The notes beneath the pieces are model-generated. The model was not told the origin of the DNA, made no database searches, and saw only the letters and a list, made by a program, of their open reading frames with translations. Shown here in pieces: positions 3,716 to 62,559 of a stretch of 64,000 nucleotides of DNA (positions are counted from its first letter, which is position 1; every line of letters begins with the position of its first letter). Both the position numbers and the translations under genes were made by a program. Source of the DNA: Okamejei kenojei (taxonomy: Eukaryota); NCBI GenBank assembly GCA_035221665.1, contig CM069145.1, positions 20,398,001 to 20,462,000 of the forward strand. Direction: 5' to 3'.

Positions 3716-6124
3716 GTGTGTAAGAAGGAACTGCAGATGCTGGCCAAAACCAAAGATATGCACAAAAAGCTGTAGTAACTTAGCTTTTTGTGTCTATCCC
3801 CTAGAATGTTAATGGTGCTAGACTAGGTTTTATGGTATTGCTGTCCATTGTCATTTAGAGGTGACCAGTTTCCTTTATTGAAGTTGCCCATTTGCCTGAA
3901 AGAACATAAGAACAAGAAATATGAATAGGAGTAGGCCTTTTATCCTTTTGAGCAATTCTCAAAAAACATAATTCCATCAAAATCAAAATATTATCATGAG
4001 TGTGTTGTTGACTTCGGTGCAGTATAGAAATTTATTTTCCCTCAGAAATAAGCGTTAGAAGGGTCCACACGTTGAAATGGTAGGAACAAGAACAAGACAT
4101 GTAATAGCCATAGAACAGGCTGCTTTTCCGACTGCCCAGGTATAGAGTGGCTGTGGGTTAGCATTAAAAAAAGACAACTGTTTGAAATGCCAGTATAGTC
4201 CAGACAATGTGTCTATTGACAGTGTTTTCCATAAGGTGAGTCTGACTGAAGTAGGTTAATCAAAGATCCATCGTGACCGATAACCTTCAAGTACTATTTT
4301 CCTGAACCAAAACTATCCATTAGCAAGGCTATAAAGCTATTTGGCAAATGGAATGCTCTAATAATATCTCTAATAATGCATCCTAACCCAGTTATTTTTC
4401 ATCTGTTAGACACTTTGAGACCTCCTATTCCATGTCTCTATACATAGATACAAATAAAGTAAATACCGTTTAGATTTTACATAAACAAACATTTAATTAA
4501 AGTAATTCAAGATGGCATTGAATATGTTATAAACATCCACATTTAAAAACACATTTTCTGTTCTACTGCTCATGTTACCTCACCTCTGGAATGGTTTTGC
4601 ATTCATATTTTGATCAAGGCTGCACCAATGTAGTCCTGGCTGAACTCAAACTGACCCTTATAAGCATGTTATTGTCGAATAAGTGTCACTGACTGGTCAT
4701 TTAAACAAGACCTGCCATCAATCAACATGAAATGTTGGGTGGTGGTTGGCAGCTTTGGACGGGTGCTTCCTCCCCCCCTGCCCCTCTTGTGGGAAAAGAA
4801 ATACTAGTAATGGAGGAGTCTGGGGTGTGGCTTGTCGGCATGCATCTGCAAGTATGACTGACTGTAACAGACTTGACTAGTCCTGTGGGATAGCTCCCAC
4901 AAGTTTGGCACGTCTTCTGGTGTTAGCAAGGAAATCTCTGTAGGTTTGACGAGGCTGGCAATATGTTTTGTGTGCCTGAAACTAATCGCTGGACTGTGCT
5001 GCCTGGTCTTATTATTATACATGTTTACTCTGGTTTTGGCCATCTCAGTAAGCTAGCTTGTTTCCCAGGGCAGAGTTGTTGTTTCAGAGTCAGGGTGGTA
5101 ACAGATTTTTTTTGCTTCATGGTTATTTTGTTAAAATGCTGACTTCATTATGACTTTTGCCAATATTTGTTAGTTATTCTTGTTTTCACTTTAATTGGCT
5201 GAATGCAAGTGCCCTTTACTGACATGTTAGAATTTTTAGATAACAAAGTAGGGGATCTGGAAATACGCAAAACCGTGATGCTACCAAAAAGCAACAAAAG
5301 CTTTTCACTGTACCTCGGTACACGTGACAATACTGAACTGAACCAAAGCCATTTGTAAAAATAACCGTTAAATTAATTGGGAACTGAGCATAATGGTGAT
5401 GATGGTTTGTTTTATAAACCAGTTTAACCTGTCGTGTAGCACATAGATATACTTAGATGCAAGTTATCCATAATTTATAGGGATAGTGTGGTACCCCCAC
5501 CTTCCCTTACTGCCCTGACCTAGGTACATACTGCCAATCCTTCATTCTGGCTTGGCCAAAATAGTGGATTTTATTTAGCTAAAACCTGCTTCCATTCTGG
5601 GAAGACTGTTATCAAAGGGCTACAAGAGTTTAAAGTGAATGTCTGCCACATCATCCATAAGCTTGTAACTATAATTTTATCTTTGCTTTGCATGGAGCTA
5701 ATTTCCTCCTTGCTTTCCAATTTGGCAATGGAAAGCCAGTGATCCTGGAAATGCAAACAAACAACATTTACTCATTTAGCCAGCAGTGTTATATTAATCA
5801 AAAAAATGTAATGTTTTAAACTTTTTTTAGTTCATCTACACCATATGAAATTAATCATAATTCATTTAAAATGGTCAATTTTTCCTCAAGGAAAACTGGT
5901 GCAATTCCTTGTTCTATAAAACAAAGAAATAATCAAGGAAAAGAAAATAAAGCCTGGAAATTAATTTAGTTCAAATTGAGTGTTTAAACAGTTAAAGCAG
6001 TGATTTTAAAAAAAGGATTGTGATCATTAATTGCTATTCTTAAATAATTGTACAGGCACATTTTAAATGAAAAATGAATATTTGGAGTAAAGTTTGGACC
6101 TTGTAGTTCCAGCCTTTAAAAGCC

Positions 6125-7355: not shown

Positions 7356-7840
7356 ATGCAGTTATCTATCGCCTCATTTACTGTGCTTCCTCCCTCATTG
7401 AAATGAACAATATCTAGATCCGAACTGTGTGCTGGGCATTTTTTGGCTGTTAGTTTATTAAAGAAATTGATCCTGACAATATATTGGAAGATTTTTTAAA
7501 GAATCTCAATTGCTTGAAATCTGCAGACTGATTAATGATTGGACCATTTGCTGTGAATTGTTTGACCTTTTCTGAAGAGTGATATTAAAAACAGTAGGTG
7601 TGATGTACCCAGGCTGAATTGAATCTTGACTGGTATTCTAAGAAAGCCATCACAGGGAGAATGATCATTGTTTCACGTTATTGAGCCAAATAGCAGGGTT
7701 GGTATGTTTTTGCAGTGCTTGTGTCTCGGACTGTATGCTGGCTGTATTGTTATTTTTCAGCCTTCAGCCAGAGAATACCCACTGGGTAAACTAACGAGTG
7801 CTCCCAAAATCTACCAAAAACCTTTCATTTGCTTATGGCA

Positions 7841-8275
7841 GACACAAAATGCTGGAGAGACTCAGCGGATGAGGCAGCATCTATGGAGAGAAGGAATTGG
7901 CGATTTTTCGGGTCAAGACCCTTCTTCACACTGTCAGGGGAGGGGGTAGGACAAAGAAAGAATGTAGGTGGAGACAGTGGGAGAACTGGGAGNNNNNNNN
8001 NNNNNNNNNNNNNNNNNNNNNNNNNNNNNNNNNNNNNNNNNNNNNNNNNNNNNNNNNNNNNNNNNNNNNNNNNNNNNNNNNNNNNNNNNNNNNNNNNNNN
8101 NNNNNNNNNNNNNNNNNNNNNNNNNNNNNNNNNNNNNNNNNNNNNNNNNNNNNNNNNNNNNNNNNNNNNNNNNNNNNNNNNNNNNNNNNNNNNNNNNCAT
8201 ACCGCCGGGGTGTACACTACCCAAGCAAAATATGAAGTGCTTGGTGTGTTCCTCCAATTTGCGCTGGCCCTCACT
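7841..8275 (-). mobile_element. Penelope-like element 3' fragment spanning an assembly gap
   Basis: EEHTKHFIFCLGSVHPGG (GIY-YIG C-terminus) lies right of the gap and the terminal repeat lies left of it. Collinear with the copy at 35283-35540. Confidence 0.8.
7993..8197. other. Assembly gap (205 N)
   Basis: Run of N. Confidence 1.
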
Positions 8276-10207: not shown

Positions 10208-10246
10208 TGAAGAAATAAGAATGCAGCCAATGCCTGACACACGTGT

Positions 10247-10338
10247 CTGAAGAAGGGTCTCGACTCGAAACGTCACCTATTCCTTTTCTCAAGAGATGCT
10301 GTCTGACCCGCTGAGTTACTCCAGCTTTTTGTGTCTAT
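10247..10338 (+). mobile_element. Short Penelope-derived element with hammerhead-like core
   Basis: CTGAAGA-AGGGTCTCGACTC-GAAACGTC followed by the family's ~65-nt tail ending gtgtcta. Confidence 0.85.
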
Positions 10339-11904
10339 GTATGTGGTACCAAGACAGATCTCTATGGTTACTTACTGTCATAGTATATGAAATTAAGTTA
10401 ATTACTGTATTGTGAAACATATTTTCCATAAGCATTTCCGAAATCAAGATGCATTATCAGAAAGCTGTTGCACAGATCACGTTAGTACTGTCTGCAAAGG
10501 GCCCTGTTGACTTACACAGGAGAAAACATGACATATTTCAAAGTTTTTTAGACCCACAAGTTTGTAGTGATTGTAAGGACAGAGGGATAGCTGAGAGGAA
10601 GCTATACTTATTTTTATAGGTTGGTGTTCTTTGGGCACATTATTCTTAATGTCCCCATCACCATCATCTCACTCAGAATGGGAAGATACAAATATCTTGG
10701 AAAATTTGAAAGATAAGACTTCACATTTGCCGAAGACTAGAATGTTCGGCCCTGTTTCAAATACAAGTGATTGGAGTGTTGACAACATTTTAATGACACG
10801 TCTCTGGGTTAATTTGGTTATAGAGGGGGGAGAGGTTGTTGGTAGTCAGGAGCATGTCCCTGTTGAGAGTGGGGGAGGCCAAAGGCATTCTTGAGGAGTG
10901 TGACGTAAATACTCCTGGCCCTTTTAATACAGGATTATCTACCAGAAGGAATGAGTAGCCTTTGCCTTGGTTCAGCAAGGAAACTTGCAACGTCAGGTAT
11001 CGCCTCATTTTTTTGTTGAATTTAAGTAGTGGCATTGATCATATCAAAACGTAGCAAATTTGGATAGCTTACTATTTTCATGCTGCATTTACTTCAAGCA
11101 ACTCATCAGTGTCCTGAATTGTACCTTTTTAAACTGGACCACTCGGGCGCGATGGGTGCTGACATTTCTAACCCCTTCTGCTGGTCTTCTCCCAGCTATC
11201 GATGGGTTGGAGAGTTGGGGGGGGGGGGGGGGGTGGGGGGTTAATATGGAGAGCATTGTATTAGCATTGAAGATATAAGTGGAAAGGGAATGTTTAGATA
11301 CTGGAGCATTGCCACTAACTATTTAATCTATTCACATACAGAATTCAGAAAAAAGGTTGGACAAATACTAAAAGACGTCGAAAAACAGATGATAAGGAGG
11401 AGATGCCAGCACTGGGTAAGGTGAGATATGCCAGCTGGGAGACCTGTTATCCTATGATTGATAGTCACCACAGTCTTGGTGGGCCAAAGGGCCTGTTTTT
11501 CTTGCTGTATTTTTCATGGATCCACTTGGCATGAGACAGTGGGATGGTCCGAAGTCTTCTAACATGACATTAAACTAATGTGTTATATCCTCCTAGACTA
11601 AGAGAAAAGCCTGCATGCATCAGTTATCAGCTGAGAGCAGAGACAAATTTCTGAATAGTCCAGTTATTTAAATGAATTTAAATTGTCACATCTATGTGTG
11701 AAAGTACATTTTGCAAATAAAACTGCGGAAAATAATGAATCGTTTCACCTTTTTAGAGCTCTGTGTGCAAGTAAAACCTCATTTGGATTTGTAGCAAATG
11801 AATTCTGGACTCCTGCTTCAAGATAAAAACATATTGATCTTTTAGTTCTGGTATCTATTCAGATAAAATCAAAGCAGGAAAAACAATCTTGTATCAATAG
11901 AGTG

Positions 11905-12245: not shown

Positions 12246-13642
12246 TACTGAGTCCAGCCAATCTTTGAGTCCACCAGAAAGAAATTAACTCTACAAAGTG
12301 GAAAATACGTTTTATTTTCTGGTACAAAGGTCTCAGTTGAGCTTTGAGCAGCACAATTTCTTTTGAAATTCTTCAAATATATAATTCACTGATGTATAAT
12401 AGATGTAATGGAATCTCTGGTCTCAAGTGGAAATCTGAGTGTGTGGGCATGATGCTGGAAGGAATTTTTAAACTTCCAGTTTTTGAACTGTTTTACTGCC
12501 TTGCAGTTAGTTAACAAATGTTGTGTGTGTTTTCAAATCCACAAGATCAATTCATTGGCAAGTGGAATATTTACGTTATTAAAGTCCCAAGCTTTCTTCA
12601 GAAGCAACTCAAAAGACACATTTTATGATGACGTTATTAATAAAATTAATTAATTTACTTAAATTTAGAAAGACCATTTATCCTGTGAAAAAAGGTTATC
12701 TTTCCCACAAATTTTGAATGGAAGTGATAAATACAATCTATCAACATCTAATTCACAATTTCAATTTGGAAGTATTGTGGAAGCATAGTGAAAGCAATAA
12801 GCATTGTTTTGTATGTTTAACAATTTAATGTTTTCTTACTGGTAAAATCTTATGGGCAGCAAATTCTGGTGGAAAAGACAAGTTTTTGTAGGAAGACACA
12901 AGAAACTGCAGATGCTGGATTCTTGAGTAAAACACGAAGTGCTGGAGTAACTCAGGGAGGCAGGCAGCTTCTCTGGAGGGAATGATCACTCAATGTTTCA
13001 ATTATGTTCCTGATCCTTTTGGGTCAGGACATCATCTTCAGAAATGCTGCCTCATCTACTGAATGCTTTGTGTTTTACTCACGAGTCTTTGCTATGGTTC
13101 AGTCATGGTGAACAGGGCACTAAAGGGCCTGTACCACTTAGGCGATTTTTTTTTTGGTGACTGCTGGAAAATAGGCTGTCGCCACATGGCCATGGGTTGA
13201 CACCTGTATTGTCGTGAGTTGTCTCCTCAAGTGTCGAAACTTTTTTCTTGTCGCCGCTGGATTAGGAAATGTTCAAACCCTTTTGGTGACAGGTGGGCTT
13301 GACGTTGCCTGTCTTCTCTTGTGGTAGGTGCTGTCGTACATTGTTGCCAGGATGACGCCAGGTGACGTTGGTTGTCGCCAGGTGATGACCTCGGTCAATT
13401 CCATTGGCAACAACCTACATCATCCTATGTCAACCGGCGACAGTGCCGGCATCAAGAGAAGTCTTCAGTAGTCTTTACTTGTCGCCGACAGGGTTGTAGC
13501 TTGTCGTAGCTTGTCGCGGGTGGAGTAGGTTGACTTCGGTTGTTGTAGGTTGTCACCTGTGCGGTCGAAGGTTGTCATAGGTGTGGACGTCTCAAGTCGC
13601 GAGGAATTGTGTCGCTTGTCATAGCTTGACGTCAACTAGGTG

Positions 13643-19196: not shown

Positions 19197-20214
19197 CACC
19201 TTGAGCCTCTTCAAAAACAAGCAGAGACCTAAAGCAAACAATGGATTAAATGTCCCCCGATCACTCTGCCCCCAAAGTTTGTTCAGCCACCTTGTGGCAC
19301 AGAAATCGAGTGAAAGCAAGTCATACTTCATCCCAAGTTTCCTACTATGCAAAGTTCAGCTAGTGTGAATTTTGATGCATACTGCCTTAACCAGTGAATC
19401 ATTTGGCATCAGCTTAGTAAGTTTGAATATGATAGTGGTTGTAAAGTCTATCAGTGTGACTCATCCATTGTCTGAATAAATAGTTTTATTCTTCTGAGGT
19501 CATTTTCAATGTGGCATTACAGAACAGCAATATCAATTGAATAAAGCTCTAAATTATCCTCTCTTTTAACAATGAGAGAGCGTTTGAACTAATCATCATC
19601 CCTAATCGGGGATCAAATCAACTGAACATTTTTATTGTTGAAAAGATCTGATGCCTGAAGATACCATGAGCCTTTAAAACAAAATCATATCTCTGTTGCA
19701 AATGTCACATTATGGTCCAAGTCCAATTTATAGATGATGTGCTTATTTATGTGGAGAACAGATGGATACAATGCACTATTTTAAAGTGGAAGATCATGTG
19801 ACTTTTATCCGTTTCATCCATAAATAAATGAGCATTTCTATGAAAACCCTGATTGAAATCCATGACAAATTTATTTATCTTAATATTTGTACTCGATTCT
19901 CGTTAACTACTGGCCTTCATTTTTTTCCCCATGAGAGCATTAATAACCCATGTGCTGTACAATGCCTCCTGTGTCCGAAGGAGGGTCTCGACCTGAAATG
20001 TCACCCGTTTCTTCTCTCCAGAGATGCTGAGATGTTCCAGCATTCTGTGTCTACCTAGGTTTGTGTTTGTGATATTCTACATATATTGATTCCCTTTCCC
20101 AATCGTGGCATTAAGGTCGAGATCCAGAAGACAAATGACCATTGCACAGAGAGAAAGTGGAGTTTTAAGAGGATGCCAGTCTAAGTTATTTTTAATAAGA
20201 GACCTGAGTCGGTC

Positions 20215-33964: not shown

Positions 33965-34440
33965 CAGATTACCGCCTTTCTTGGGAATGTTATAAGTCTG
34001 CACAACGATGAGATCAGGCATTGACCCGGCAACTGTTTCACCAAATACTTGTACTTAGTACGTCAAGGCCGACTTGATCTCATGGTTGCTAACCATTTTA
34101 ACTCCTTTTCTCACACCTATTTCACTCCTCCTCCTCCCCTTCCATCTACATTCCTTTCTCTAGCTTCACAATTCACAACTCTTCAATCCTTTTGTCTTTT
34201 CATCTCAAACCTTTGTCCAACCATCTGCCTATCAGAAATCTCCCTCATCCATACTTACCTATTACCTGCCAGACTTTGTCCTGCTCCTCTCTTCCTGTTT
34301 TCTCCCCCCGCCCCCTAACAGTCTGAAGAAGGGACTCGACCCGAAATGTCACCTATCCATGTTTTCCAGAGATGCTGCATTAGTTGCTGAGTTACTCCAG
34401 TACTTTTCTTTTTGCAAACCAGCATCTGCAGTTCCCTGTT
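33965..34440 (+). mobile_element. Penelope-like element 3' fragment
   Basis: VRQGRLDLMVANHFNSFSH (GIY-YIG remnant), a pyrimidine tract, and CTGAAGAAGGGACTCGACCCGAAATGTC at 34323. Confidence 0.8.
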
Positions 34441-35282
34441 TCTACTCTCCTTAACTTATTTTGATATCCAAAGGTTCTTGAAAGTTTGCCATTGCTTATT
34501 TACAAGATGGAGGATTAAAAAAGCCATTCAGCTTGACTTGTCTATGCTGATCAAGTTGTCCTTCTACGCATGTCCCACGCCCATTTTGGACACACATTCA
34601 TCTAAAACCTTCCTATCCATGTACCTATCCAAATTATTTAAAATGTTCTTATAGCTGCCTCAATCATTTCTTCCCGTAGTTCGTGCCATATACATACCAA
34701 CTCATCTGTGAAAAAGCCACCCCTTCAGTTCTTGTTAAATCTCCCCCACTCACTTTAAACCAATGCCTTCTAATCCTTGATTCTCGAACCGTGGGGAAAA
34801 AGGTTGTGTGCATTCACTCTCTGTTTGTGTAGTTTCCAATTATGCACAACCAGAGCACACAACTTGCTTTCGTAGTTTGCCTTGGTTAGATTTAATACCA
34901 TAATTAACCTTTTCTTTCATGCACAATGCTAGATGTGCAATGGACTGTTTCTGCTTTGATTTCTGATCCAGGAAACCATTACTTATGCACTTGATGAATT
35001 CATCCCTCACACTTCCACCAGGAATTTGATTTGCCGGCTTACATATACATTAAAGTCCCTGTGATTCTTTAATTCCCTTGGTTACTACACCCTAAGATGA
35101 CCACTCCTGTTTTTAGCGTCTACATGCAACTCCTGCCAAAGTTGTTTGACTTTTGCCATCTCTTATCTTCACCCAAGCTTCTTTTAATTGATATTTTTGA
35201 GTCTGGATTTTTTCTCTTTGCTCTCTTTATTCTGTTACAGTAATACGGCAATTACGGCATACCTGACTCCTTTTTCAATTTG

Positions 35283-35540
35283 GACACAAAATGCTGGAGT
35301 AACTCTGGAGAGGCAGCATCTCTGGAGAGAAGGAATGGGTGACGTTTCGGGTCGAGACCCTTCTTCAGCCTGATGTCAGGGGAGTGGGCGGGACAGAGAT
35401 AGAATGTAGTCGGAGACAGTAAGACTGGGTGGGAGAACTGGGAAGGGGGAGATTGTGGAGAGGGAGGGAAAGCAAGGGCTATTTGAAGTTAGAGGTCAAT
35501 GTTCATACCACTGGGGTGTAAGCTACCCAAGCAAAATATT
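35283..35540 (-). mobile_element. Penelope-like element 3' fragment with perfect hammerhead core (35368-35341)
   Basis: Inverse of CTGAAGAAGGGTCTCGACCCGAAACGTC, preceded by IFCLGSLHPSGMNID-like coding remnant. Confidence 0.85.
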
Positions 35541-35731
35541 TTCTATTTTGCCCATCTCTTCTAAAAAATACAAGTATCCTAGAATATTGAATTCCCAGCA
35601 TTGATCATTTGTTTTTATTATGAATGCAGTATGCATTCAGATAAAGATCCTTTAAATGTGTCTTTGTACCACATCTCCTTGCTCTGACTCGAGCACAAGG
35701 TATACTCACTTGTTCATATGCAATGTTAGTT

Positions 35732-35862
35732 CTGAAGAAGGGTCTCGACCCGAAACGTCACCCATTCCTTCTCTCCAGACATGCTGCCTGTCCTGCTGAG
35801 TTACTCCAGCATTTTGTGTCTACCTTCGATTTAAACCAGCATCTGCAGTTCTTTCCTGCACA
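35732..35862 (+). ncRNA. Penelope terminal-repeat fragment with minimal type I hammerhead ribozyme core (predicted cleavage after GUC at 35759)
   Basis: CUGAAGA, stem II GGGU-CUCG-ACCC, GAAA, palindromic ACGU stem III, UC. Stem I is weak and activity is unproven. Confidence 0.6.
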
Positions 35863-36830: not shown

Positions 36831-38759
36831 ACCTGCTCACCCTTGCCTGTCCTAAAATTGTCCCTTTATTTAATCTTGCACTTTTTTCAGCAGGGGGCAG
36901 AACATTGACTCCCCAGCCCAATCCTCGCTTGCACTCCATGCTGAGGCAGCGGGGTCACTCCTAACAGATTTTTCTCTGCCACAACTATGATGGATCAACA
37001 ATGTATGTCCTGACCCATTATGGACTAACTTCAACAATGGGAGGACCGCAGGGTCTTGTGAATCAACTAAAATCTACTGAGAATCAACTGAGTGGAACTA
37101 AAAGCCATATTATAGGTTTAGAGTATTGTCTGCAAGCTTTTGACACCACCTGTTAATGCTGAGCTTGGGGCATGAGGTGTGAGAGTGGGGGTGGTGTTGG
37201 CCATGGTAAACACTGCCAGTTGGCAGATTTTTCTTCTGGATCTACAGGTTTGCTGGGGCAGGTCTTCTGCCTACGTCATGACTACATCTCCATTTTAGGC
37301 CTGAGGACAATGTTAATGGTATAAAAATGGCTGCCATAACTCCTGCCTGCCAGCCTCCAGTTGTGGGCTGCGTGGATGTTGATAGCAGAGTGTTTGGACT
37401 GGTGCGCAGTGGTGGATAATAGCTGTGGGTATAGCGTGTTTAGCATCCTGGATGTGGACCCAGGCAAGTTTGATTTGTTTGTCATCATGAACCAATGAAG
37501 TCGATCGCTTGTACCTAGTTGCTGTCTGATGCTTTCCCACTCCTGACACAATTGCAAATAAGATGTCTCTTGTGACACATGTCTGGAGTTGCTGTTCATA
37601 TTTGTTTCCCCCAGCAGCATTGAACTTGTTTTCTTTTTTTTGAACAAGAGGAGAGTCATTGTACTCAATGTTTGTGTAGTTTTGTGGGGGCGGGGAAAGA
37701 CATTTTCATACATGTCCGTCAGGAGTCGCTCCCAAAAGACATTGCAAAGAAAGCACTTTGATTGTGTGTGTGGGCGCAATTAGAGGAGGCTCAAAACACA
37801 CAGCTGCTGGCTCTGCCTTCAGACCTTATTCCCAGTTGAACATTTTCCACACCTTCAACATGGGGTGAGGGATGTCAATATTATATTTTACTACCACCCC
37901 CCACCTTTCTTTCGAATTTGGAGTTTCCAAAACTAAAAGAAATGTGGACTTTAAATGGGTTTATTTTGGCAAACTGTAAATTATTAAACAGCCAAATCAG
38001 TGTGCTTAAAAAAAAATTGATTTGAATCGAAATTCCAATGTAAGGGATGTCACAGTTGGGACTTAGTAATTTCTGCAGCTGAGATCAGTAGATCAATGTT
38101 TAATCTGTTTATTTGCTAATATTGGCCAAGTTATTTCCAGCCTGTCCTCGGTGATTGCTGCAGTATACGACTTTGCACATTCACCATTACCTTTGCAACT
38201 CAGCAGGCCTGCAAAACCAATTATAATTTTGGCAATTATTATATTCTTTTATTGCTTTTTCTATTTGGCTTTATTTTAAAAGAAAGCACTGGACTTGCTT
38301 GAATAAGATGAATAATTTGAATCTGTAACTCAAGCTGTAACAGCTCGTTTGCAATGTGCTTACAATCTTAGAACTATCTGATTGTACTCCATGTCTGCAC
38401 AGCAAGCTATCAGCTTGCCTGTATAATAATTATTGAAAGGTTGAACACAGCCCAAGGAGCAGATGAATAAAAGTTACAAAAATACAAAGCTCCCCTGCAG
38501 CTTTCTTCCCACTACTACAATCCGTCTGACGTGAAACGTCACCTATGCATGTCCCCCAGAGATGCAGTGTGACCCACTGAGTTACTCCAACACTGTCTTT
38601 TTTTTTATCCAGCATCGGCAATTTCTTATGTTTACAAAGATACATGCTCTGCTCTCTTTGGGAAGACAAAGGTCCATCCTTGCAGCTAAGGGGCTCTCCA
38701 TTGTGTTTGTGGCATTACAAATGTTGGAGTCAGAACAGATTTGGCATCTCAAAAGCAGG

Positions 38760-40290
38760 CATCCATGAAGCACTGCGGACCTTCAACATTTACACCCCTG
38801 ATGATTGTAGCCTCATGGCCTGGTACTTTCCCTCAATCCACCATTTATTGTCAAGACAATGTCTCAACCCTAGTTCACTGAAGAGTGCATTCTGGATGTA
38901 ACATCAGATGTACCAAACGTTTATGTGGAACCTGCAATACAGAACCATGTGCAGAGTAAACAACAAAACCAGCATGCAATAGGTGAGTATAAGTGATCTT
39001 ACAACCAACGCATCAGATAGAAGCTCTGTTGACCTTCCACTTCTAGTCATGAATGGAGGTGAGCAATTGAACAGCAAACAGGAGGAGAAGGTTCAAGATC
39101 ACCCCCTTTCTCAGTGGTAGGAGCGGCAGCATGGGAGTGCTAAAGAAATGGCCAAAGCATTCACAATCTTATTCAATCGGGTGCTGAATGGAAGATCCAT
39201 CCAAGTATCCTCCTGAGATTCCCACTATCACTGAAGAAGGGTTTCGGCCCGAAACGTTGCCTATTTCCTTCGCTCCATAGATGCTGCTGCGCCCGCTGAG
39301 TTTCTCCATCACTTTTGTCTACCATTCCCACTATCACAACAGTCGGTGTTCAACCACTTGGATTCGCTCATCGTGATAACAAGAAACAGCTGAGAGCCCT
39401 GAATTCAGCAAAGGTTTTATGACCAGGCAAGATGCACTCCAGAACTTGCTGCACCTTCAGCCAAGCAGTTTCAATATAATTACAACACTGGCCATACAGT
39501 TTTCATCCAGTCATTCTACTCTCAATCATCAGCAAGTGATGGAAGCTATCATCAACACTAACGTTCTAAAGCCCCAGTTACTCACCAATAACCTACTCAC
39601 TGGTGACCAATTTGAGTTTGGACACTCGGCTCTGGGCAATCTTGAAACAATGAGCTGGCTAATGATGATCCACAAGGCATGATGGAATATTCTCCACTCA
39701 CATGGATGAGTAACTCATCAACTCACAAAAAGCTCAATGTCATGTTGGACAATATAGCCCACTTAATGACACCCCATCAGCCATACCAAGCATTCATTTT
39801 TTCCAGCATTGGTACACAATGGCTGTATTGAGCTGGCTGATGATGATCCACAAGGCACATGCTTGGAGCATGTGTTGGCTGTATTGTGTGCCATCTTTGA
39901 GATGTGCTGTGGTTCCTTGCCATGATCAATTCCCACAGCATCTTCCAAATCCGCAAAGAAAGAAAATGGCAGTAGATGTTTGGGAACGCAATCGTGCATG
40001 TTTAAACCACACATCATTCTGACTAGAGTAGATAGGGTATCTTGGTCAGCATGGGCAAGTTGGGACAAAAGGCATGTTTCCATGATAATATATGAGTGAC
40101 TTAGAAATGTATCACTGTTCCTTCATAATCACTTGGTTGAAATCCTGGAACTCTCTGCCCGACAACACTGCGGGGGTATCTATGGAGGAAGAGTTGTAGT
40201 GTATCAAGGCGGCAATACCTTTTTTGAAGGTATTTTGGATTGAGCAATAAATCCTGACCTTGCTAGAGACATCCAGATGCTGAAAGTGAA
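38760..40290 (+). mobile_element. Old CR1/L2-group LINE, fragmented, reaching its 3' end
   Basis: MEAIIN, LLTNNLLTGDQFEF and atggaatattctccactc (MEYSPL) remnants. The 3' end gagcaataaatcctgaccttgctag is at ~40243. Confidence 0.7.
39231..39323 (+). mobile_element. 93-bp hammerhead-core mini-element with 13-14 bp TSD
   Basis: ATTCCCACTATCAC at 39218-39231 and 39324-39337. Core CTGAAGAAGGGTTTCGGCCCGAAACGTT. Confidence 0.9.
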
Positions 40291-40813
40291 TATTTACAAA
40301 ATAGACAAATAGATATCATCCATTTATTGCAGACAAATTATGAAATGAGTTGTGAGCATCTGTTAGGCTGGCCCACATCCTCTGTTTGTGTGCTTTTAGT
40401 GAATGCTTTGCCCACGTGCTTTTTAGTGCATAGCTAAGACCCAGTCGATCCCCAGTCTTTGTTCGGTTGACTGATATCCTGAGGAGCACCAGGGTTCCCA
40501 CAATATTCCTGATGCACTTTCTGTTGCAAACAGTTTCCCACTTCACAACACTTGGATGACAACGAAACCAAGGACCAGATGTCAGCCTAGTTTCAGAAGC
40601 AAAGGGAGGGGAACTCATTGACAATGGAGGGATAAGAAACCGAGTCAATATTCAGTTTACTTCCACAGTGGCATTTTTGTATTTCTGCAAAATGGCGAGA
40701 GAAGTTATCAAGCCATGTTCTTTATCCTTATAGTGACACTGATGCAGTTACGAGGGAGTTGCCCTATAGTCGGCTGCCTGTTATCATCCTTCATGTTAAG
40801 TGTCTACTGAACT

Positions 40814-40907
40814 CTGAAGAAGGGTCTCGATCCGAAACGTTACCCATTGCTTCTCTCCAAAGATACTGCCTGTCCCGCTTAGTTACTCCAACATTTTGTG
40901 TGTCTAC
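40814..40907 (+). mobile_element. 94-bp hammerhead-core mini-element with 10-11 bp TSD
   Basis: CTACTGAACTC at 40804-40814 and 40908-40918. Core CTGAAGAAGGGTCTCGATCCGAAACGTT. Confidence 0.9.
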
Positions 40908-43900
40908 CTACTGAACTCATTTAATATATTTTACGAAACCCCTTCTGTAATTGTAAAATATATAATTGTTATAGTAGGGAATTCATTTTTTGAGAAGGAA
41001 AGCAAATGGGTGGCAATCCATCATGGGTTACTGCCAATAGGATTGCACCAGGTAGTGGCTGTGTACTGTGTGTTGATTCTAAAGCTCAATCCCACAACTG
41101 CATACATGGTGCTGTTGATAGTGTGTTGCATACAGAATACCAGTGCTGAACTCAATGCAAATTGAGCAAAATCATCTTTATTTCATTGCAAAGCTATAAT
41201 TTGCCACTGCAGAATAACTTGATGGTTCCCGGTACTAATACATTAACATATACATCACTGCCTCCCACCATCCCTACTGACAACAATACAAAGCATTAAA
41301 ACTCCAAGAAATATGAAACAATGGGAATATTGGCATCGTTCATTTAAATCTGTAGGTAAATCAGTCCATTTAAGTTCAGAATGTCAAGTGTTCACATATT
41401 GATTTCACGCTTTGTAGTTTGTTATCTGGATTTCTTTCGGACTGCATTGTGTATGTTTGATTGATTGGCAGGTGCGTCTCCCCATAATGTCCCTGTGCAT
41501 TATTCACATCTCTCCTTGTCACTTCAATAATTCCTCATGAAATGTTCCCTGATTTACTTGGCAGGCAAATAATCTGCTTCACGATCCCTTCCATTTGCAT
41601 TTGCAGCCCGTCTTTAAAATGCAAACTATTTTTATATCCCAGAATGAGTGCATCAGAATGATTCCAGGGCTTGGAATTCCTCTTGGCTTTCACGGAGTAC
41701 TCTTTCTTGTAACTTAACCAGGACCCATCAGTTTGCCTCATCATGACTGAGTTACAAGCTTAAGACATGCGGTGGCATGAAAAGACCATGCACTGTGCTA
41801 GCTCGATCATCAACTTATTAATGGTTTTCAAATGACCGAGCTGGTGAAAAATGCTGTCACTGTTTCCCTGGTTAATACAGTATCAAGTTGACTTATTTGA
41901 GTGAAACTGTATATATGTTGTATTTAGTTTTACCAAGAATCAACTTGTTTTGTTGCCATTCAAGGATGTGGATTGTGAAGATGTTCTGGATCTTTAAAAT
42001 AATTCTGTTCGTCTCCCAAATTGAATTATGTTCAGAGTTGAGGGAGAGTTTTCTGAGTTGATCGTTTTAATCTGTTTGCAGGCTTTTTGAATTAGTACGA
42101 TGGAGGGCAGTGAAAAGGTCTCTTGGATCTACATAAAAGTCTTTATTTAAATTAAACATTCATTATTTATAATGTTTTAAGGCTATAGCTGACTGTGTTA
42201 ACAAAATAATGAATCACTGTGATATAAATATATTCTGGTGGGTTGAACATGCCTTTGGCTTAAAATAGTTTATGATGAATAGCCTACACACTGATGGAAA
42301 TAATCATTGTGTCACATCAATCATTTATGAAACTGTGTTAAACAATTTAATTCCTATTTGGATGAATAAAGAAGCAGAGCCTTGCAGGTGATTATACTGA
42401 TGCCAGCAGGGCTAACTTGTTATATTGCCACGATAACAAGAACAATAACCAGATCATAAAAGCTCATGTTAATTATGGATAAGTGAGCCCTTTCAACCCA
42501 TCTTTATACATCCATCTGGGAAAGTTATGAATTGTCAATTGCAGCAACCAAACTTCTTCTTTGATATATTCCAGAGTTTATGTTCTGTATATTTTATCGG
42601 GAAATTCTGTTCATGTATTAATGATTCAACCGTTCCAAATTTAACCGAACCTGCTCAGTTAGAACAGGTTGGGCCAGGTCAGTCACAACATTTATCTTGC
42701 ATGTAATTTTAGTTGTGCACTAAATTTGGCATTTGATTGGAACCACCTCGTTCTCTTGATGGTTAGTAGAGGCAAGAGCCTGCGTTCGACAAAGTGCTGA
42801 ATTATATTTATCCACATGTACCATTTACTAAATTGAATATGTTGCAGCATGCATAGATTAGTCTTCTGCACCCCATAACCAAATTAAGACCCTTGAATCC
42901 AATAAAGCTTATTTGAAAACTGCAAATGAGAAAGACGGGCTGAATGATTTTCCTTATCTGTAATCATAAGATTTAATGGATAGCGTTTTAGCCTTTTGTT
43001 ACCGCAGTAATAGAATAGGTCAACACACTTCCATAATGGTATGCCTCTCATTTTTTCAATAGGAATTATTTAACCCAGAGTCATGAATGATTGATTTATG
43101 ATGCTTTTTTCTGTATTATTACTGTACTGAATAGCTTTAAAATCACCTCACAACAGTTTCCTTTGAAGGATAAGAGACTCAAATTGCTCCAGTCTTTCTG
43201 CATAATGCAGATTTCTGCAGCACCAATCCTGTGGGCACAGTTCTCATTCTGATACTTGTCATTGAAATGGGAGAAGCACCTTCTATGTCCTCATGTGAGC
43301 CTAAGGCCATTTACAGCTACGTCAGTGTTATGGGAGCATTTTTTTTAAAGCAACTTTAGACGAGGATACCATTCGAATGGCCCATGTGCTTGTTCACATC
43401 CACCTACAGGAATCAAAGAGGCCTTTGTTCAATCACACCAGCAGCTCCAGCAAAGGAGAGTTCCTGTCATTTTATTTACAACCTGCCCAAATTCATAAAT
43501 TGAGTTGAGACACTTGGCAGTAAGGCGTCCCACTGACGAGCCATACATTGCTCAGGCACGTTGGGACTTTTTAGGTAAAACGGTAAAGTTCAAAATGGGC
43601 AGTGTATGAAAATTTGCAGAATATGTCATGGACCTTTTGCAGGATGCTGACATCTCACATCACAATTAGCTCTTAAATATCAATGATTCTTTTGCTTTAA
43701 GTAAATAAATAAATAAGTAAGTTTATTGGCCAAGTATTCACATACAAGGAATTTACCTTTGTGCTCCGCCCACAAGTAACAACATGACATATGTCTAACA
43801 TGACATATGTTAACAATTGTCTAAAATCACACTGCCAAATTAATAAGAAAATCTTATTTTAAAGAACAATATATTTGTTGGCACACTTTGGTTCACAGTG

Positions 43901-44680: not shown

Positions 44681-45190
44681 AGTGAAGGAAGTGAAGAGTG
44701 AGGATTAGACGCAGAGTGGGGGCGGGGAAAGGTTGGGGGGAGCGAGCGGGTGATTGGACAATAAGAGGAAATTGATGGGGAGGGAGCAAGGACAAAGAAT
44801 CATACCAGGATTAGATCAGAGTGCAGGAGATAGGACAGGGGTGCACAGGATGTCAGATAGGAATGGGGAAAGGGAATGGGCTGTAGAGCAGACCAATGAA
44901 GCATCAAGTTGAGAAGGGGGCGGCAAATGAAGCCAAAGTGAACATGGACATTTGAAAGTTCATATTCAGCATTGATGCAGTGCCTGTATTTATCATTGAC
45001 TGGCACCTTGTAAGACTGAATTGCACTATTTATTAGTGGTGCCTGAATGTACATCAATAGTGCGATCTCAAGTAGTTATGTGCACATTGATGTTATGTTC
45101 CTTATAGTAAACATAGAAAATAGGTGCAGGAGGAGGTCATTCGACACAGCATGTACATTATTGACTTTTAAAACACAGGCTGCTAAAAAA

Positions 45191-45315
45191 TCTGAAGAAG
45201 ATCCCGGCCCAAAACCTGTCACCTATCCATTTTCTCCAGAGATTCTGCCTGACCTGCTGAGTTATTCCAACATTTTGTGTCTATCTTTCGTATAAACCAG
45301 CATCTGCAGTTCCTT
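45191..45315 (+). mobile_element. Degenerate Penelope terminal-repeat fragment
   Basis: tctgaagaag...gctgagttattccaacattttgtgtctatc...aaaccagcatctgcagttcc. Confidence 0.8.
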
Positions 45316-45572
45316 TTTTTAAATTACATTTTGACTGCTACATTGTTTGACCTGTGTTTCTTTCCATCCTGCTAATCACCTGTGCTCCCACAAGCCACAT
45401 GCCCTATTTGGTTGGGAAATATGATGGCCATAACTTTTATTTAGACAGTAGATTGAAATGATGATATACCAATCCATTTATAATGTTTCTTTCCTTAAGA
45501 ACTAATCCATACAGTGGAATCTTGGGTACAGTCTAATGAAACCTTTTTGTTTTGTTTGTTTGGAATAAAAAG

Positions 45573-46357: not shown

Positions 46358-47026
46358 GTATGTGACGGACTGTAGGCTTAGGCTGACACTCATTTCCAAA
46401 TCCTCCCCTACCATTCCAAAATGGATGTGAAACAAACTGCAGTATTTTGAATTATAAACTACATACAACGAAGTAGATGCCACAGATCTCCATTAACATA
46501 AGCACATTAGGAGTGACTTGTGTATTTAAATTGTGCAACATGTAAGACACATGCAGAAATTGCTCAACCTTTTGATAAAATTACTTTAAATTTCCCAGGG
46601 ATTGTCATTCATCTGTGTGCACAATTACATTTTGACAGGACTGTAAAAGCTGATTGAAGAGAAACCGTGTAGGGATTAACATCCTTGTTTGAGCGCCGGT
46701 GTAGAATGGAAATGAAAGGAAAACTGTTCCAAAAATATTAATAACTTGCAACATTTCAGCCTTTTCATTCTGAGCTGATTTTAAATTATATGCAGCAACA
46801 TTTTATTCAGCCATTAACAGATTTTTTTTAACCTCAATCACCAGCAATCCTTTTCATGCTGCAATGTTCTAATTCTTTAATTCAGCTTTGGGGCTTCTTT
46901 GCAGTTCAACTCGTTCAAAGTTCTATATCCACCTGGATGTTTCTAAATCCAGTTTCTAAAATCCAACCTAAAATCCAACCTGCAAAGCAGGCAGGAGAGA
47001 TTGGAAGCAACTATCTAAAATCAAAG

Positions 47027-47116
47027 GGTACACAAAAGGCTGGAGAAACTCAGCGGGTGCAGCAGCATCTAAGGAGCGAAGGAGATAAGGCGACGTTTCG
47101 GGTCGAGACCCTTCTT
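47027..47116 (-). mobile_element. 90-bp Penelope-derived mini-element with complex target duplication
   Basis: Inverse aagaagggtctcgacccgaaacgtcgcc..., flanked by aaatcaaag on both sides. Confidence 0.88.
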
Positions 47117-49895: not shown

Positions 49896-52800
49896 ATATA
49901 AGAAATGCTAAATAAGACAAAAGAACAGGTTGTTACAAATTCAGAGCAAGTTGAAAAATTGAGCCTGTTTGTATCAGACTGAAGATCTAGAAGGGTAAGA
50001 GACTAGAGGGGAAACCAAAAGCAATGACAGCTTTAAAGAGGAAGGGTCCACAGTGCAAGTTTGTGCCACACACATGATGCTGCGTGTCTCTGAGACTGAA
50101 TTTCAGGAAGGGCGAGGTCTCGTGACGTTGTGTAGCTCAGACTTGACCTCAGTAAGGGCGAAGATCACATGTGCTGCTGTGTGACAGAGCCTGGGCCTCA
50201 GCATGTGGCTGGAGTAAGGGTCTGAGTGCTTTGAATGTCATAGTGATGCGTGCATTTGTTGCTGGAGCCAAATTATGAAAGGTGAAATTACAAATGGAAA
50301 CGACAAAGAGTAACTCGGAAGATGAGACAATTGACAAAGGAAGGGATAAATTACATTTGGTAGATTTTGGTATATGTAGAGGAGATTTACTGGGGTGTTG
50401 CCTATCATAGAGGACTTTGGTTATGGGGAGAGATTTCTTCAAACTTTCTTTGGAGTGGTGGAGACTGTCAGCAGAGTGCTGCAGCTGGTCGAGCCACTGC
50501 CTCACAGTCCCTAAGCCCTGGGTTCAATCCCAACCTCGGGTGCTGTCTGAAACTTTTATTTTTAAGTTTTAAGGAGAAATCATGAAATTCATTTGTGTCA
50601 GCTCCAAACTACACCAGCAAGCTTCCTCGTGACATTTAAGCGGTTGGTTTCCGCACACCTCTTTCATGCAATAGTTAGCAGACCACAAATGTCGAATAAA
50701 CCCATGCCGTCACTATTCTTGAACTCGAAGTCACCCTTATTTCAGAAACCTTGCCCTGTGATCTTTGCAGCGTCTCTGCTGAGAAACTCCAGATCTGTCG
50801 ATTTGCTCCCCGCTGAATCAGGGAAGTCAAGAAATACTAGATAAATGGAGAACCATCTCTTTGGTGAATGTGACTTTATGATGCTAGAGTGTAGGACTCC
50901 ACAAAGTGCAGGGCATTTACAGAGACTCTTGTGCTGTGACAGGCACTAATTTGGCAACACCCTTCTGAGTTTTTTATCAGATATCTTTCTCCAATTTTAC
51001 CATATTTCTGTCCAGATGAAAATCAAACTATCTTGACTTTTTGCTGGATTTTTTTTGTTCTGGCATTTTATCCGGGTGCTTGCTTTTGAGCGGAAATCTG
51101 CTGAAAGTGGCTGGCGTGACTGTGATCCTAGTTTGAGTCAGTCAGCCCATTTGAACCTTCTTTGGCAGCTCTACTATCAACTGCAGGAGGGATGCGCCTG
51201 AAACCTTTGATACCAATTAGCTTTAGCCTCCAGCATTACAAAGAACTGGTTCTTCTGTAGCGAACAATACCATCATTTAGACCAATGTGGTTAACAATCA
51301 GGCCAGAAACTAGTTCTTGGTATTGCACAAGTGTTGATGTTGTTTGGGTAAGCCAGTCGAAAGAAAACAAGCTACACATTAGTTTTTTTCCATTACAAAC
51401 ATCATAGCATTAACTACTGCCTTTAACTCTCTAAGAACTGTGATTAAAATTGGTTGGTGTTGCACAACACCATTTTCCTGTGTGTTGCACAGATTAATTT
51501 TTAAGCCATAAGGATAGACAACTCATTTTTAACCCATAAGATAGAGTAACCCAGGGGGACAGGCAGTATATCTGGACAGAAGGAATGGGTGATGTTTTGG
51601 GTCAAGACCCTGAGAAGAAGAGTCTCAGCCTTCTATCCAGAGATGCTGCCTGTCCCACTGAGTTACTCCAGCATTTTAAGTCTATCTTCGGTATAAACCA
51701 GCATCTGCAGTTCCTTCCTACTCATTTTTTAAGCCAGACTCTTCTTTGGCCTATGGTGATATTTTGCGATCCAAGTTTTCAATCGAACAAGCACATGATA
51801 GCTAATTTTGATGTGCGCAATGCAAACACCCCATTGCTAAATGCACTAGTTCATAAACACTCCAGACTTCTGTGAGAGTGCAAACAAATGGATTTTATCA
51901 GAAGCAATTATTTACTGATTGGAACAAAAGCCTGTGGGTTTTGGAGATCACTCAAGGACCAAAGTTGATACTGTAACCTCTGGTTAGGGACATGTTCAGT
52001 GGACACAAGCTTTAAAAAAACTAGTCGACAACTCAAGGATGTTTGTTTTCTGTATCGCCTTGTCACTGTGGTTATCTATTTGAAAAGCACTTTACAGATA
52101 TGATTTAATTTGTATATTCTTGGTCATATTACATTTATGTTAAACTATAACTAATTGACACCAAAAATAAATGAATAGAAACTAAATTAATAGTAATACA
52201 TAATCTATATAACCAAAGTAAAATAATGAAATTTAATTAATTTGAAGCCAATAAATCTAGATAATTTACTTGGATTCCACATTTTTATTACCTAATTTGT
52301 TTCTTATGTTGTTAATGTGCCTGTTATGTTGCCATGATTTGCCTTGTTGTTTTTATAACTTCAATTATAATGTGATTCTTGGATCACTCTAAAAATCATA
52401 TCATCCTTGATCTGTCACCATGTTTGGCAATAATCCCAGTGGCCACTGTGCCTTCTCTCAGCAATTCATTTGACACACAAATATAATGTATAATGCAATC
52501 TATTAAAAAGTAAGATAGCAGTTACATTAAAATATCATGTACATTGCAGAAACTTTCATATATGTTACTAAATTTTAAACATGATTTCTATTTCACGTAG
52601 GATCACGTGAAAAAGGATTGCATTTTTACTCAATCATATAATCTCTTTATTGTTTTTATTGATTTAATCTCCACTTCAAACCAAATGCATGATCCAAACT
52701 ACTTTTTCCTTAGAGACGGGAATGTCAGTTTCTTTAGAGAATGTATATTTTTTAAATGCGGAGATTAGTTTGATCAATCTAATTGAAAGGTAAATAAATT

Positions 52801-59642: not shown

Positions 59643-60327
59643 GGCTTGGTAAATATAAAAATTGTCCCTAGTGGGTGTAGGATAGTGTTAACATGCGGGG
59701 ATCGCTGGTTAGCATGGACCCAGTGGGCAGAAGGGCCTGTTTCCTCGCTGTATCTCTAAATTAAAACTAAACTAAACTAAACATTTCAGTTCAATAACTT
59801 TCCATTAGAACTAGAAAAAGTTAATGATGGAACAAAAATGTTTTGCTGCAGAGGAAATGGGGGATAAAACAAAGAGAAAGGTACAGTATGTAAAAGGATG
59901 CAATGCAGGAGAGATTAAACAACATAAGAAGTGATGGTACAATACAAAAGTGAATACTGAAATGGTACAGGATTGGGAGGCCAAATAATTAAGTAAACTG
60001 TGGCATTTAGTAGATAATGGTGGATAATGGTCACTGGCTTAATCTAAATCAAGCAGAATGTTTTAAGCGTTTAAAATTAAAACTGCCTGTACATATGTAG
60101 ACTGGGGAAGTACATTTGCTATGAAGCCTGTTGTTGCTTACATAGTGATCAGATGAAAATTGGGGCCAACGCATAGATGTTAAATATAAACAGACGTTCT
60201 TATCATTGGAACAGTGATTTACTAATGTGGTTTGCAACAATGGATCTCCAAATAATCTTGGCACTCGGCTGAGGGATATGAACAGAATTGTTTCAGTAAG
60301 GCTGAATTATGTGGATATAAATCTTAT

Positions 60328-60417
60328 TGAAGAAGGGTCTCGACCCAAAACGTCACCCATTCCTTTTCTCCAGAGACACTGCCTGTCCCGCTGAGTTACT
60401 CCAGCATTTTGTGTCTA
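60328..60417 (+). mobile_element. 90-bp Penelope-derived mini-element with 10-bp TSD
   Basis: TTATTGAAGA at 60324-60333 and 60418-60427. Confidence 0.9.
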
Positions 60418-62036
60418 TTATTGAAGACCAACTGGATCAACTATTATTGCCAGCATTCAAATTTACAAAAAGAAAATCCTTGTAGAGCATTTTATTGACG
60501 AGAGATCCTATAGAATGCAGAATTTTATTGTATTTTTTGTTTATTTTTCGTTGACAGGTAATAGAATTTCAAAAGTGCGATTAGTTCCATGTTAACCCAA
60601 CGTACTAAACAAGGTCTGATCCCTGTTCATCAATCAGATTCCCCGTCGCTCCGAACTTATTTGGTTCGCGTCCATAAGGATGAACTTGCTGGTGGAGGGC
60701 AACCTGGACCTAATCAACAAGATCAAAGGCCATAACAGGGTCACATGGGTGGCTCAGAACAAGCCCACCCACTAACTGCTGTGGAAATTTTGACAGATTG
60801 CTATGCCCACCCCCCGCTGATCAGCCATCTGTCAAATCTGTAAAGTTTCTGGGCTGCTTTCAAAAACTGTTAAATAATGAGCTAAATAATTTTAACTAGA
60901 AAATTATTAGCAAGATTAAGAATGCCAAAATAATCAAGGCAATACTACTAAGATAAAAAAATAATAGATAACATGCATTATAGTCTGTTTATGTTCCATA
61001 CAGTTGTAACATCTCCACGGCAATGAATGGGGTCTCAGATGAATCCTGGCACAGGATCCTAAAACTGATTCCCAGTCTAAGTGTTGGGGACTCGCATCAA
61101 GTTTGTGTTCTGCTTTCATGTGGAGACTGGTGTCAGAGCATAAGGCAGAATTCACCCAGCGGCAATCTGTCAGCAAGTTTGGGATTCCACACGTGGATGT
61201 AAGTAAGCATGAATCCCAAACTTGCTTACATTGAGGGGGATAAATAGCATGAAGCTGCTGACATTCGCCTGCAAGGTTCAGTTTGTTCATCATTTGTAGA
61301 AATAATTGAAACCTTCACTCTTGTTGTGCCAATGCCTGCTGAGAATGAGGTGGTAAAGGATAATGTTTAGGTTAAAGGTGATTAATTGCCAGGAATTTCT
61401 TATTATTCAAGGTATTTTACAAAGTGTTTAGCTGTATACTAAGAACAAAAATAATTTCCTGATCTTGACCTGGGAGTGGGGTTGGGGAACAACGAGACAC
61501 CATAGGTACTACAAACAACGCAGCAAGTGGATTCCTTTGTAAAAAATAAAGAGACATGTGAAGTTGAGGATGAGAAACCTGTCCTGAGATTCAAACTTCC
61601 AACACGCTGCATGCAGGAAAATTTGTAGCCTCCAGGTGCATTTTATGGCTGAGCTTGGTTTTATGATCAAAGATAATAGGATTTAAAACTTGTGACCATT
61701 GCCAAATTTTCCTGACTGGAACATCTCTAATCCAGATTCTGTCAAAGCTTCTGGTTGCCAGCAACATCTGCTCAAAGCAGTAAACAAGTTTTATTTTAAA
61801 ATGTTTCAAGTTTCCTGAGGGCCAATGTACGTCATAATTTCGAACAAGTAACTGAAGGAGAATGGCATTTGTCATAAACGTGGTGACCGTGGATATTGAG
61901 ATGCGACCAGTCCTGATGGTAGTAATAGGGTTTTTGTTGTGGGTTGATGCAAATAATCCAACAAGTTCTCTCGATGGTGCTTCCTTCCTGGCATGCACCA
62001 CCCCTTACCTGACATACACACCTCACTGAATATAGG

Positions 62037-62126
62037 ATAGACACAACAAGCTGGAGTAACTCAGCGGGACAGGCAGCATCTCTGGAGAGAAGAAATGGGT
62101 GACGTTTCGGGTCGAGACCCTTCTTC
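62037..62126 (-). mobile_element. 90-bp Penelope-derived mini-element with near-perfect 13-bp TSD
   Basis: CACTGAATATAGG at 62024-62036 and CACTGAATGTAGG at 62141-62153, with 14 nt of filler at 62127-62140. Confidence 0.85.
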
Positions 62127-62559
62127 CTACGAGTGAAGACCACTGAATGTAGGGTTTTGTGGGCAGGGAGCCCCTTCCTCAGCCTCATGGGTTTTTTTAG
62201 ACAGCTCTTAGTGTCACAACATTGAGTGGCAGCTGTGGAGTACATTCTGAAGGTCACTTTACCGCTTGTTTTAAGATAGGCCTCCCATAAATGAGTTTTG
62301 CTGCATTTTGTAATCTACCTGTGTCCTTTATCATTTGCAGAGTGACAATCATGTGAATTGTACAACTATGGGGGAAAAACTAAATCCATGCATAATGAAA
62401 ATTTTTTTAAAATGCATAGGCTGGAAATTGGAATAAAGGCAGAAAATGCTAGAAACATTCAGCTGGTCAGATAACATTTGTGGAAAGAGAAACAGTTAAG
62501 CTTTCAGAAATAAGGTCCTTCATTGGAACTGCTTAAAAATAGATTGTTTAAATCTGTGG

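Follow-up and report, generated by a model that had tools for sequence, protein, structure and literature searches.

Short hammerhead-bearing units in Okamejei kenojei as putative stubs of Penelope-like elements with a stereotyped 5' end

Described relatives of the unit

Pseudo-LTRs (pLTRs) of Penelope-like elements (PLEs) of the EN+ group, Neptune/Nematis type, have been described by Craig 2021 (PMC8557442) and Arkhipova 2013 (PMC3846280). A CX2-5CxxC linker between RT and EN marks Neptune/Nematis (PMC8557442). The elements of Okamejei kenojei analysed here share with this type the partial tandem pLTR-ORF-pLTR structure, the RT followed by a CX2-5CxxC linker, with a GIY-YIG domain at the C terminus, an optional tail of 30-40 nt, an adjacent inverted truncated copy, short target site duplications (TSDs) and solo pLTRs. 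In contrast to the pLTRs in the accessible text of both papers, the solo copies found here have one sharp 5' end with an excess of G and number about a million. Solo pLTRs have been put down to recombination or deletion in these sources, with TSDs of 8-10 bp, whereas TSDs here measure 13-14 bp. In the accessible parts of PMC11167929 and PMC8557442, the regeneration of the pseudo-LTR and the role of the hammerhead are treated as an open question.

The PLE PAc (Poseidon_Ac) has been studied by in vitro TPRT (Frangieh 2024, PMC11167929). In PAc, RT starts at two internal sites and the tail is defined by them, both target strands are extended, and uncut RNA is the main template; these features would all have counterparts in the present system, as does insertion into the own pLTR (here L121 and L174). 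In contrast to the present element, in which the ATG lies 162 nt downstream of CUGAAGA, PAc belongs to the Penelope/Poseidon clade and its hammerhead overlaps the ORF start; a fixed 5' end and a putatively cap-derived G, as found here, are not reported in the accessible text of that account.

The minimal hammerheads described in metazoan PLEs by Cervera and de la Pena 2014 (PMC4209133) resemble the present motif in the sequence CUGANGA, an extra base before stem II, a G10.1-C11.1 pair and a palindromic 15.2-16.2. In the text available, they are mostly single dispersed motifs and opposite-strand pairs, called probably truncated PLEs, and the arrangement is alike here. Unlike them, the present motif has a stem II of 4 bp and a stem I of at most 2 bp, which is often cut off, and its activity is putative. 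Non-LTR retrozymes (Li 2026, bioRxiv 10.64898/2026.07.22.740005) are likewise derived from PLE pLTRs, carry a type I hammerhead, are non-coding and occur as dispersed monomers. In contrast to their tandem units, each with a full hammerhead according to the accessible text, the units described here are solo or head-to-head, flanked by TSDs and not bounded by the cut. Membership in the non-LTR retrozymes was considered and rejected, as neither tandem repeats with complete hammerheads nor units delimited by the cut were found.

The units are very abundant and belong to a known class, and their stereotyped 5' end is informative about the mechanism of PLE copying. With ~4% of the sampled DNA made up of one unit of ~100-130 nt whose ends can be mapped, the genome is a large fossil record of a PLE step. 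Such units are prone to mis-annotation as SINEs or retrozymes. In the main text of openly available papers, a literature search met with no report of solo pLTRs whose 5' ends are fixed and marked by a G.

Copies of the unit in the window

The window, i.e. the whole stretch of 64,000 nucleotides, was scanned with an nhmmer profile of the unit, and the hammerhead was also sought in Rfam. The scan gave 20 matches and an edge copy at 1-20. All 18 places at which an earlier note on this DNA had listed the motif were recovered, and one copy was new (62412-62496). Head-to-head pairs are present at three sites (2546/2611, 3718/3782 and 51540/51614). The features are as follows.

1-497, minus strand: 5'-truncated long copy with GIY-YIG C-terminal codons (496-256), 3' UTR and the start of a unit interrupted by the window edge; 98.6% identity with the intact element L111
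2546-2699, no strand assigned: head-to-head pair of decayed units (profile scan)
3703-3810, no strand assigned: head-to-head insert of a tailed piece and a short inverted piece; 13-bp TSD round the pair
7834-7960, minus strand: unit on pyrimidine-rich UTR; endonuclease-like remnant past a stretch of N
10245-10344, plus strand: short unit; no clear TSD
12900-13041, minus strand: tailed unit, decayed (profile scan)
19974-20057, plus strand: short unit, decayed, with internal deletion (profile scan)
34320-34437, plus strand: tailed unit on UTR of an older subfamily (profile scan)
35281-35381, minus strand: unit on UTR with endonuclease C-terminal remnant (profile scan, sequence comparison)
35730-35861, plus strand: tailed short unit belonging to the ~130 nt class; TSD not clear
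38528-38627, plus strand: tailed unit, decayed (profile scan)
39218-39231, plus strand: left TSD of the 39231 copy, 14 bp; its last C is common to TSD and unit
39231-39323, plus strand: short, tailless PLE terminal unit that agrees at 87 of 92 nt with that of the endonuclease-attached long copy L054
39231-39258, plus strand: minimal hammerhead motif, with CUGAAGA at 39231-39237, stem II at 39239-39250 (U-G pair, UUCG loop), GAAA at 39251-39254, palindromic ACGU and a cut after 39258 predicted from the letters only
39324-39337, plus strand: right TSD of the 39231 copy, 14 bp
40804-40918, plus strand: short unit; 11-bp TSDs at 40804-40814 and 40908-40918
45190-45316, plus strand: tailed short unit of an older subfamily (profile scan)
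47025-47116, minus strand: short unit inside a 34-bp tandem repeat; 97.8% identical to the L111 unit; TSD ambiguous (9 bp adjacent or 19 bp at distance)
51540-51722, no strand assigned: head-to-head pair of units (profile scan)
60324-60427, plus strand: short unit; 10-bp TSDs, 6 nt of which overlap the unit start
62024-62153, minus strand: short unit starting at +2, preceded by 14 extra nt ending in G; 13-bp TSD with one mismatch
62412-62496, minus strand: decayed partial unit, new to the list (profile scan)

Five of these had been named in the earlier note as units of 90-94 bp bounded by TSDs. The TSDs are clear in four of them but ambiguous at 47027, and the span from TSD to TSD is 92 nt (39231), 93 nt (40814) and 84 nt (60328), with 104 nt at 62037 owing to 14 extra nt before the unit. 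That the units insert independently with their own TSDs is supported by copies in the window and in the genome. A single length class of ~90 bp did not hold, since a second class of ~126-132 nt with a PLE tail exists (e.g. 35732, 45191).

The hammerhead-like head was borne out, and the stem II variant with a U-G pair and a UUCG loop was confirmed at 39239-39250. In the 800-kb genome sample described below, a full hammerhead descriptor (core CUGANGA/GAAA/UH, stem II and palindromic helix III) has 25 matches, compared with none in the reversed control, in keeping with a minimal type I hammerhead motif, whose cleavage activity is putative; Rfam gave no hammerhead match at E<=1. The core is conserved above the tail, as none of 11 catalytic positions varies among the subfamily centroids, compared with 18-19 of 60 tail positions, and the excess conservation of core and stem II has p=0.004 at K=6 and 0.08 at K=8. 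Stem II is 94.6% paired, with 1 C-G among 462 rows of the alignment; changes are one-sided only, and two-sided covariation was found in 0 of 4 pairs. With ViennaRNA, the pairing probability of stem II is at most 0.04 in 5 of 5 natural contexts. Stem I, which had been put at ~2 bp in cis, has at most 2 bp, but its 5' strand is wholly absent from the 39231 copy, which starts at the C of CUGAAGA right after host sequence. Either catalysis in the parent or use as a promoter may lie behind the invariant core letters.

Near-matches reading CTGAGGA at 15136, 49780 and 63809 are not units and form parts of another repeat, which we take to be LINE-like.

The parent element

In long copies, the unit is preceded by the C-terminus of a GIY-YIG domain and by a UTR rich in pyrimidines. 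The copy L111 (contig C16) is an intact element, consisting of an 898-bp pLTR, the unit, the tail, a frame of 1197 codons and a 3' pLTR that ends at the unit. Its two pLTRs are 99.8% identical, and its frame encodes RT, a CX4CX2C linker and GIY-YIG. These long copies and their intact parent support the link to PLEs that had been drawn from the window. The linker reads CNRKKCNTC in L111 and in L020. For L020, Pfam gives RVT_1 with E=9.6e-6 and GIY-YIG with E=0.001, two matches that lie below the curated cut-offs of Pfam. There are 718 protein homologues, many with PF00078 and some with PF01541, and the nearest named protein match is from bamboo shark (70%). The repeats in question are the terminal unit, i.e. 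a minimal hammerhead with an optional tail of ~33 nt, of PLEs with a Neptune/Nematis-type linker; the putative clade assignment uses the linker as its one character, following the definition of PMC8557442.

As in other EN+ PLEs, a single ORF with RT and C-terminal GIY-YIG is accompanied by partial tandem pLTRs, a tail and an inverted adjacent copy. The pLTRs vary in length, and the 3' ends of the unit lie ~33 nt apart. The 5' pLTR is closest or tied-closest to the 3' pLTR of the same copy in L111, L112 and L115, not in L118. The PLE family looks recently active.

Intact or near-intact frames of ~1190 codons were seen at L111:5036-8626, in L112 and in the 78782326 region of contig C9. They carry a long Pro/Ser/His-rich insert in the N-terminal half, and the homologues mostly have 650-1100 aa. 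At L111:5066-5077, the ATG lies in a splice-donor-like context (AAG/GTATGC), and ahead of the unit lies a stretch of pyrimidines with CAG.

Abundance and relation of short and long copies

For the genome, 80 hand-spaced stretches of 10 kb (800 kb) from contigs C1-C29 were searched with the unit profile, giving 353 matches, compared with none in a reversed-sequence control. The estimate is ~1.2 million unit copies genome-wide (bootstrap 1.03-1.42 million), with 4.1% of the sampled bases; the two exact stretches of the unit that were tried have 2,883 and 37,015 genomic matches. Among single short copies, irrespective of age, 15 of 81 lie between TSDs of at least 10 nt (shuffled flank pairs 3/241). 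The 353 matches include 55 head-to-head pairs, 14 of which have a TSD of at least 10 nt (null 1.5%; two of the pairs are duplicated loci). By inspection, tailed and tailless partners seem to combine almost independently in these pairs, of which 27 are mixed, 10 are tail-tail, 7 are none-none and 11 are unclassed. Among the 207 sampled copies with an intact head, 144 (~70%) are short and stop there (92 single, 52 in inverted pairs), 55 run into UTR and 8 are unclear.

Short and UTR-attached copies occur together in every one of 7 sequence clusters that are 4-18% diverged. Nearest neighbours are of like class in a fraction of 0.585, compared with 0.577 expected (p=0.43; n=325, 98 long and 227 short), the unit length of 90 nt limiting the power of both tests to show small lineages. 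In the young family, 3' haplotypes are common to short and long copies. Of the features of a SINE, fixed ends and TSDs are present, while an own lineage with diagnostic changes was not found in these data. Since all clusters are mixed and the neighbour test is at chance, the units do not appear to form an independent family and are best read as short stubs of a PLE. The earlier note had headed its entry with a discrete SINE-like ribozyme family, for which the clusters gave no support; the stereotyped abortive integration product that it had offered as its other option is favoured by the long copies, which match in sequence, subfamilies and TSD lengths. As TSDs are the same in both, short and long copies are products of one machinery.

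Ends of young copies

Positions within the unit are counted from the C of CTGAAGA (0), and the hammerhead cut is predicted after +27. The young set consists of 97 distinct copies, obtained from 98 fetched copies of the first 100 listed matches, which cover the first 6.7 Mb of one contig. Their 3' ends fall into two groups, with 65 at 88-98 and 32 at 116-132. At the 5' side, 58 of 89 copies end within 15 nt (-7 to +7 of CUGAAGA), 31 are scattered from -12 to -1523, and eight of the 97, which end at +8 to +18, were set apart from the 89. The loss per nt is 0.043 in the 5' peak, compared with 0.001-0.004 upstream, and the 5' stop is seen also in subfamilies with differing upstream UTRs. None of the 97 young copies has a 5' end at the hammerhead cut (+19 to +28), and 6 of 353 do in the wider sample. 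Because 5' ends at the cut are lacking, the stubs are not copied from cut RNA, and the ends of the unit are not set by ribozyme cleavage. Part or all of the 5' strand of stem I or of the core is missing from 38 of 66 young short copies, and core letters are lost in 26 of the 66.

Among single copies of the young set, TSDs of at least 9 nt were found at 22 of 40 in the short class and at 11 of 26 in the long class (p=0.45; nulls 5/230 and 0/149) and are absent from about half of these copies. They mostly measure 13-14 bp in short and long copies alike, and 31 of the 97 copies have an inverted partner. End positions and TSD lengths over copies, which had been proposed as a check, thus show clustered rather than random ends in the young set.

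To the left of the TSD, TSD-resolved young copies have C at -5 in 14 of 27 cases and A at -3 in 17 of 27, which may be a preference of the endonuclease. Within +45 to +125 of the unit, both clusters of 3' ends lie ~15-20 nt after a CCAGC motif; either copy of CCAGC can pair with an upstream ATGCTG stretch, and alternative folds may set two RT starts.

The junction G and a candidate cap site

In short single copies ending AGT, a G precedes in 12 of 18 non-C (non-templated) cases (p=4e-4), compared with 1 of 77 long copies; for those ending GT, the numbers are 12 of 19 (p=1.6e-3) and 1 of 79. Starts at -3, -2 and +2 have the G in 32 of 46 cases, compared with 6 of 34 for the remaining starts that could be scored and 5 of 31 for junctions of long copies (p ~5e-6, with starts picked post hoc). 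The G lies outside the TSD in L191, L156 and L167 and is target-derived in L121. Full-length L1 copies likewise have an extra G at the 5' junction, which has been ascribed to mRNA capping in the accessible text of PMC11702581, and the Penelope promoter is described as internal and TATA-less in that of PMC2377424.

The positions -5 to -1 of the unit are occupied by an initiator-like YCAGT. From the extra G, the 5' cluster and this motif, which fits an initiator consensus, we infer run-off at a capped start: the 5' cluster is likely a capped RNA start reached by run-off and offers a candidate cap site.

In two RNA alignments, no piled-up read ends were listed at the unit, at low power and with runs that may be of another species. 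Of the aligned reads, 91-98% continue into unlike sequence; passenger reads lie on both strands, and the second reference is ~10% diverged. Single-cell reads of the runs X21 and X22 lie on one strand at L111:4828-4920, with a T-rich loose end at 4828. This pile-up is probably due to internal oligo-dT priming on antisense passenger RNA.

Proposed run-off copying and its alternatives

Strong-stop DNA of LTR elements is a short cDNA that begins internally and terminates by run-off at the capped 5' end. For the units of ~95 and ~130 nt, a similar origin is proposed, with a probability of about four in five: they would be short insertion products of EN+ PLEs, for which RT initiates at either of two sites inside the RNA and copies until the capped 5' end is reached. 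By analogy with PAc (PMC11167929), the RT of the element would start just downstream of the hammerhead motif and would run off the 5' end of the capped RNA ~95 or ~130 nt upstream of the start site. Pol II would start at the YCAGT (A at -3, also -2 and +2), the junction G would be copied from the cap, and head-to-head pairs would arise when both target strands get extended. The hammerhead would be copied uncut, as a passenger in the stubs. In contrast to LTR strong-stop DNA, such a product would be primed on nicked target DNA without a tRNA primer and would for this reason be integrated. Against run-off stand the 15-nt width of the 5' peak and the target-derived origin of some junction G's (L121), and a terminal-transferase activity of RT at any RNA end could also give a G. 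The stubs name a candidate cap site, and an intact young element and putative jump junctions are at hand for run-off and template transfer.

It has to be weighed against this whether solo units with an internal promoter and both RT start sites contain a share of SINE-like masters that are re-copied in trans by PLE protein, which seems unlikely. An internal promoter exists in Penelope (PMC2377424), and the pLTR alone is enough for mobilisation in trans in Adineta (PMC3846280), as far as the accessible text of both goes. The ~70% of short copies among those with an intact head (144/207), a slightly higher variability in short copies (1.6% vs 1.1%, p=0.15) and the occurrence of the 39231-type head on short copies in 10 of 11 cases of one listing would also fit such masters, and the rarity of the stop in near-full-length copies (see below) points to a separate short RNA pool. 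However, none of the 7 clusters is short-only, the neighbour test is at chance, and haplotypes are common to both classes. The 39231-type head is found on long copies, too (L054; 3 of 10 in the clustering listing), but a unit of 90 nt has little power for small lineages.

It is improbable, and less likely still, that the 5' peak marks no transcription start but a place beside the hammerhead fold where RT stalls or processing occurs, or else a splice acceptor with its pyrimidine tract and CAG. The peak does fall on the 5' strand of stem I, all subfamilies have a pyrimidine tract and CAG upstream, and the intron end of Penelope in D. virilis maps to the 5' end of helix I in the accessible text of PMC4209133. 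However, RT should stall on meeting the 3' foot of the structure and not once it has been passed, a stall gives no reason for the extra G, and the low pairing probability of stem II (at most 0.04 in 5 of 5 contexts) speaks against a stall. After splicing, copies would start at -1 behind exon sequence, whereas many units directly adjoin their TSD and the observed starts range from -4 to +2. A retrozyme-like element, with a unit defined by self-cleavage and circularisation, is hardly credible for these units and already largely refuted, since the invariant catalytic positions (0/11 vs 18-19/60 in the tail) and one tandem junction ending at +27/+28 (L023) are outweighed by ends off the cut (0/97 young, 6/353 wider sample), the lack of head-to-tail arrays in the window, two-sided stem II covariation in 0 of 4 pairs and the loss of core letters from 26 of 66 young short copies.

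Long copies and possible jump junctions

Near-full-length copies that reach +7 stop at the peak in 1 of 21 cases (17 and 4 from two sets), compared with 58 of 89 young copies (p=2.5e-7). Given this rarity, one simple capped mRNA is insufficient, and either a further class of RNA or an efficient transfer has to be invoked. Long copies have a seamless junction at -3 and for this reason call for an RNA without a break, from tandem read-through or as a circle, or for transfer guided by homology; the data fit any of these. Of 419 unit heads, 19 have a same-strand piece of the element just upstream, and one of the 19 ends at the cut, ambiguously.

Composite inserts were found at 5 of 30 ORF-start loci (L223, L224, L236, L237 and L240; ~1340-2030 in element orientation). 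They consist of a unit, a tail, the ORF up to ATG+403 to 418, a short A-rich spacer ending in G and a second unit from +2 or -4. L237 holds two joints, and the 6 joints in all fall within 16 nt, in a search that demanded the first 360 nt of the ORF and thereby favours such pieces. TSDs surround the whole composite in L223 (15 bp) and, less clean, in L224 and L240; in L236 and L237, no TSD was found round the composite. The change 35T>C is common to both units of L223 and absent from L111. The composites may record an RNA end followed by a template jump, which suggests that RT is able to jump once it has run off and that the stubs may be supplied by a short capped RNA of ~580 nt.

A tentative extension of run-off copying, possible rather than probable, is a strong-stop type of replication. 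RT would start in the 5' pLTR, run to the cap, jump to another template position and go on copying there, regenerating pLTRs and tails, and the million stubs would be copies that were integrated before the jump.

Some pieces of older subfamilies (L008, L016 and L074) end ~76-97 nt into the ORF, and some are joined directly to another unit or UTR. In L121 (4700-4830, element orientation) and L174, short units with TSDs of 12-13 bp lie in the element's own 3' UTR at about -100.
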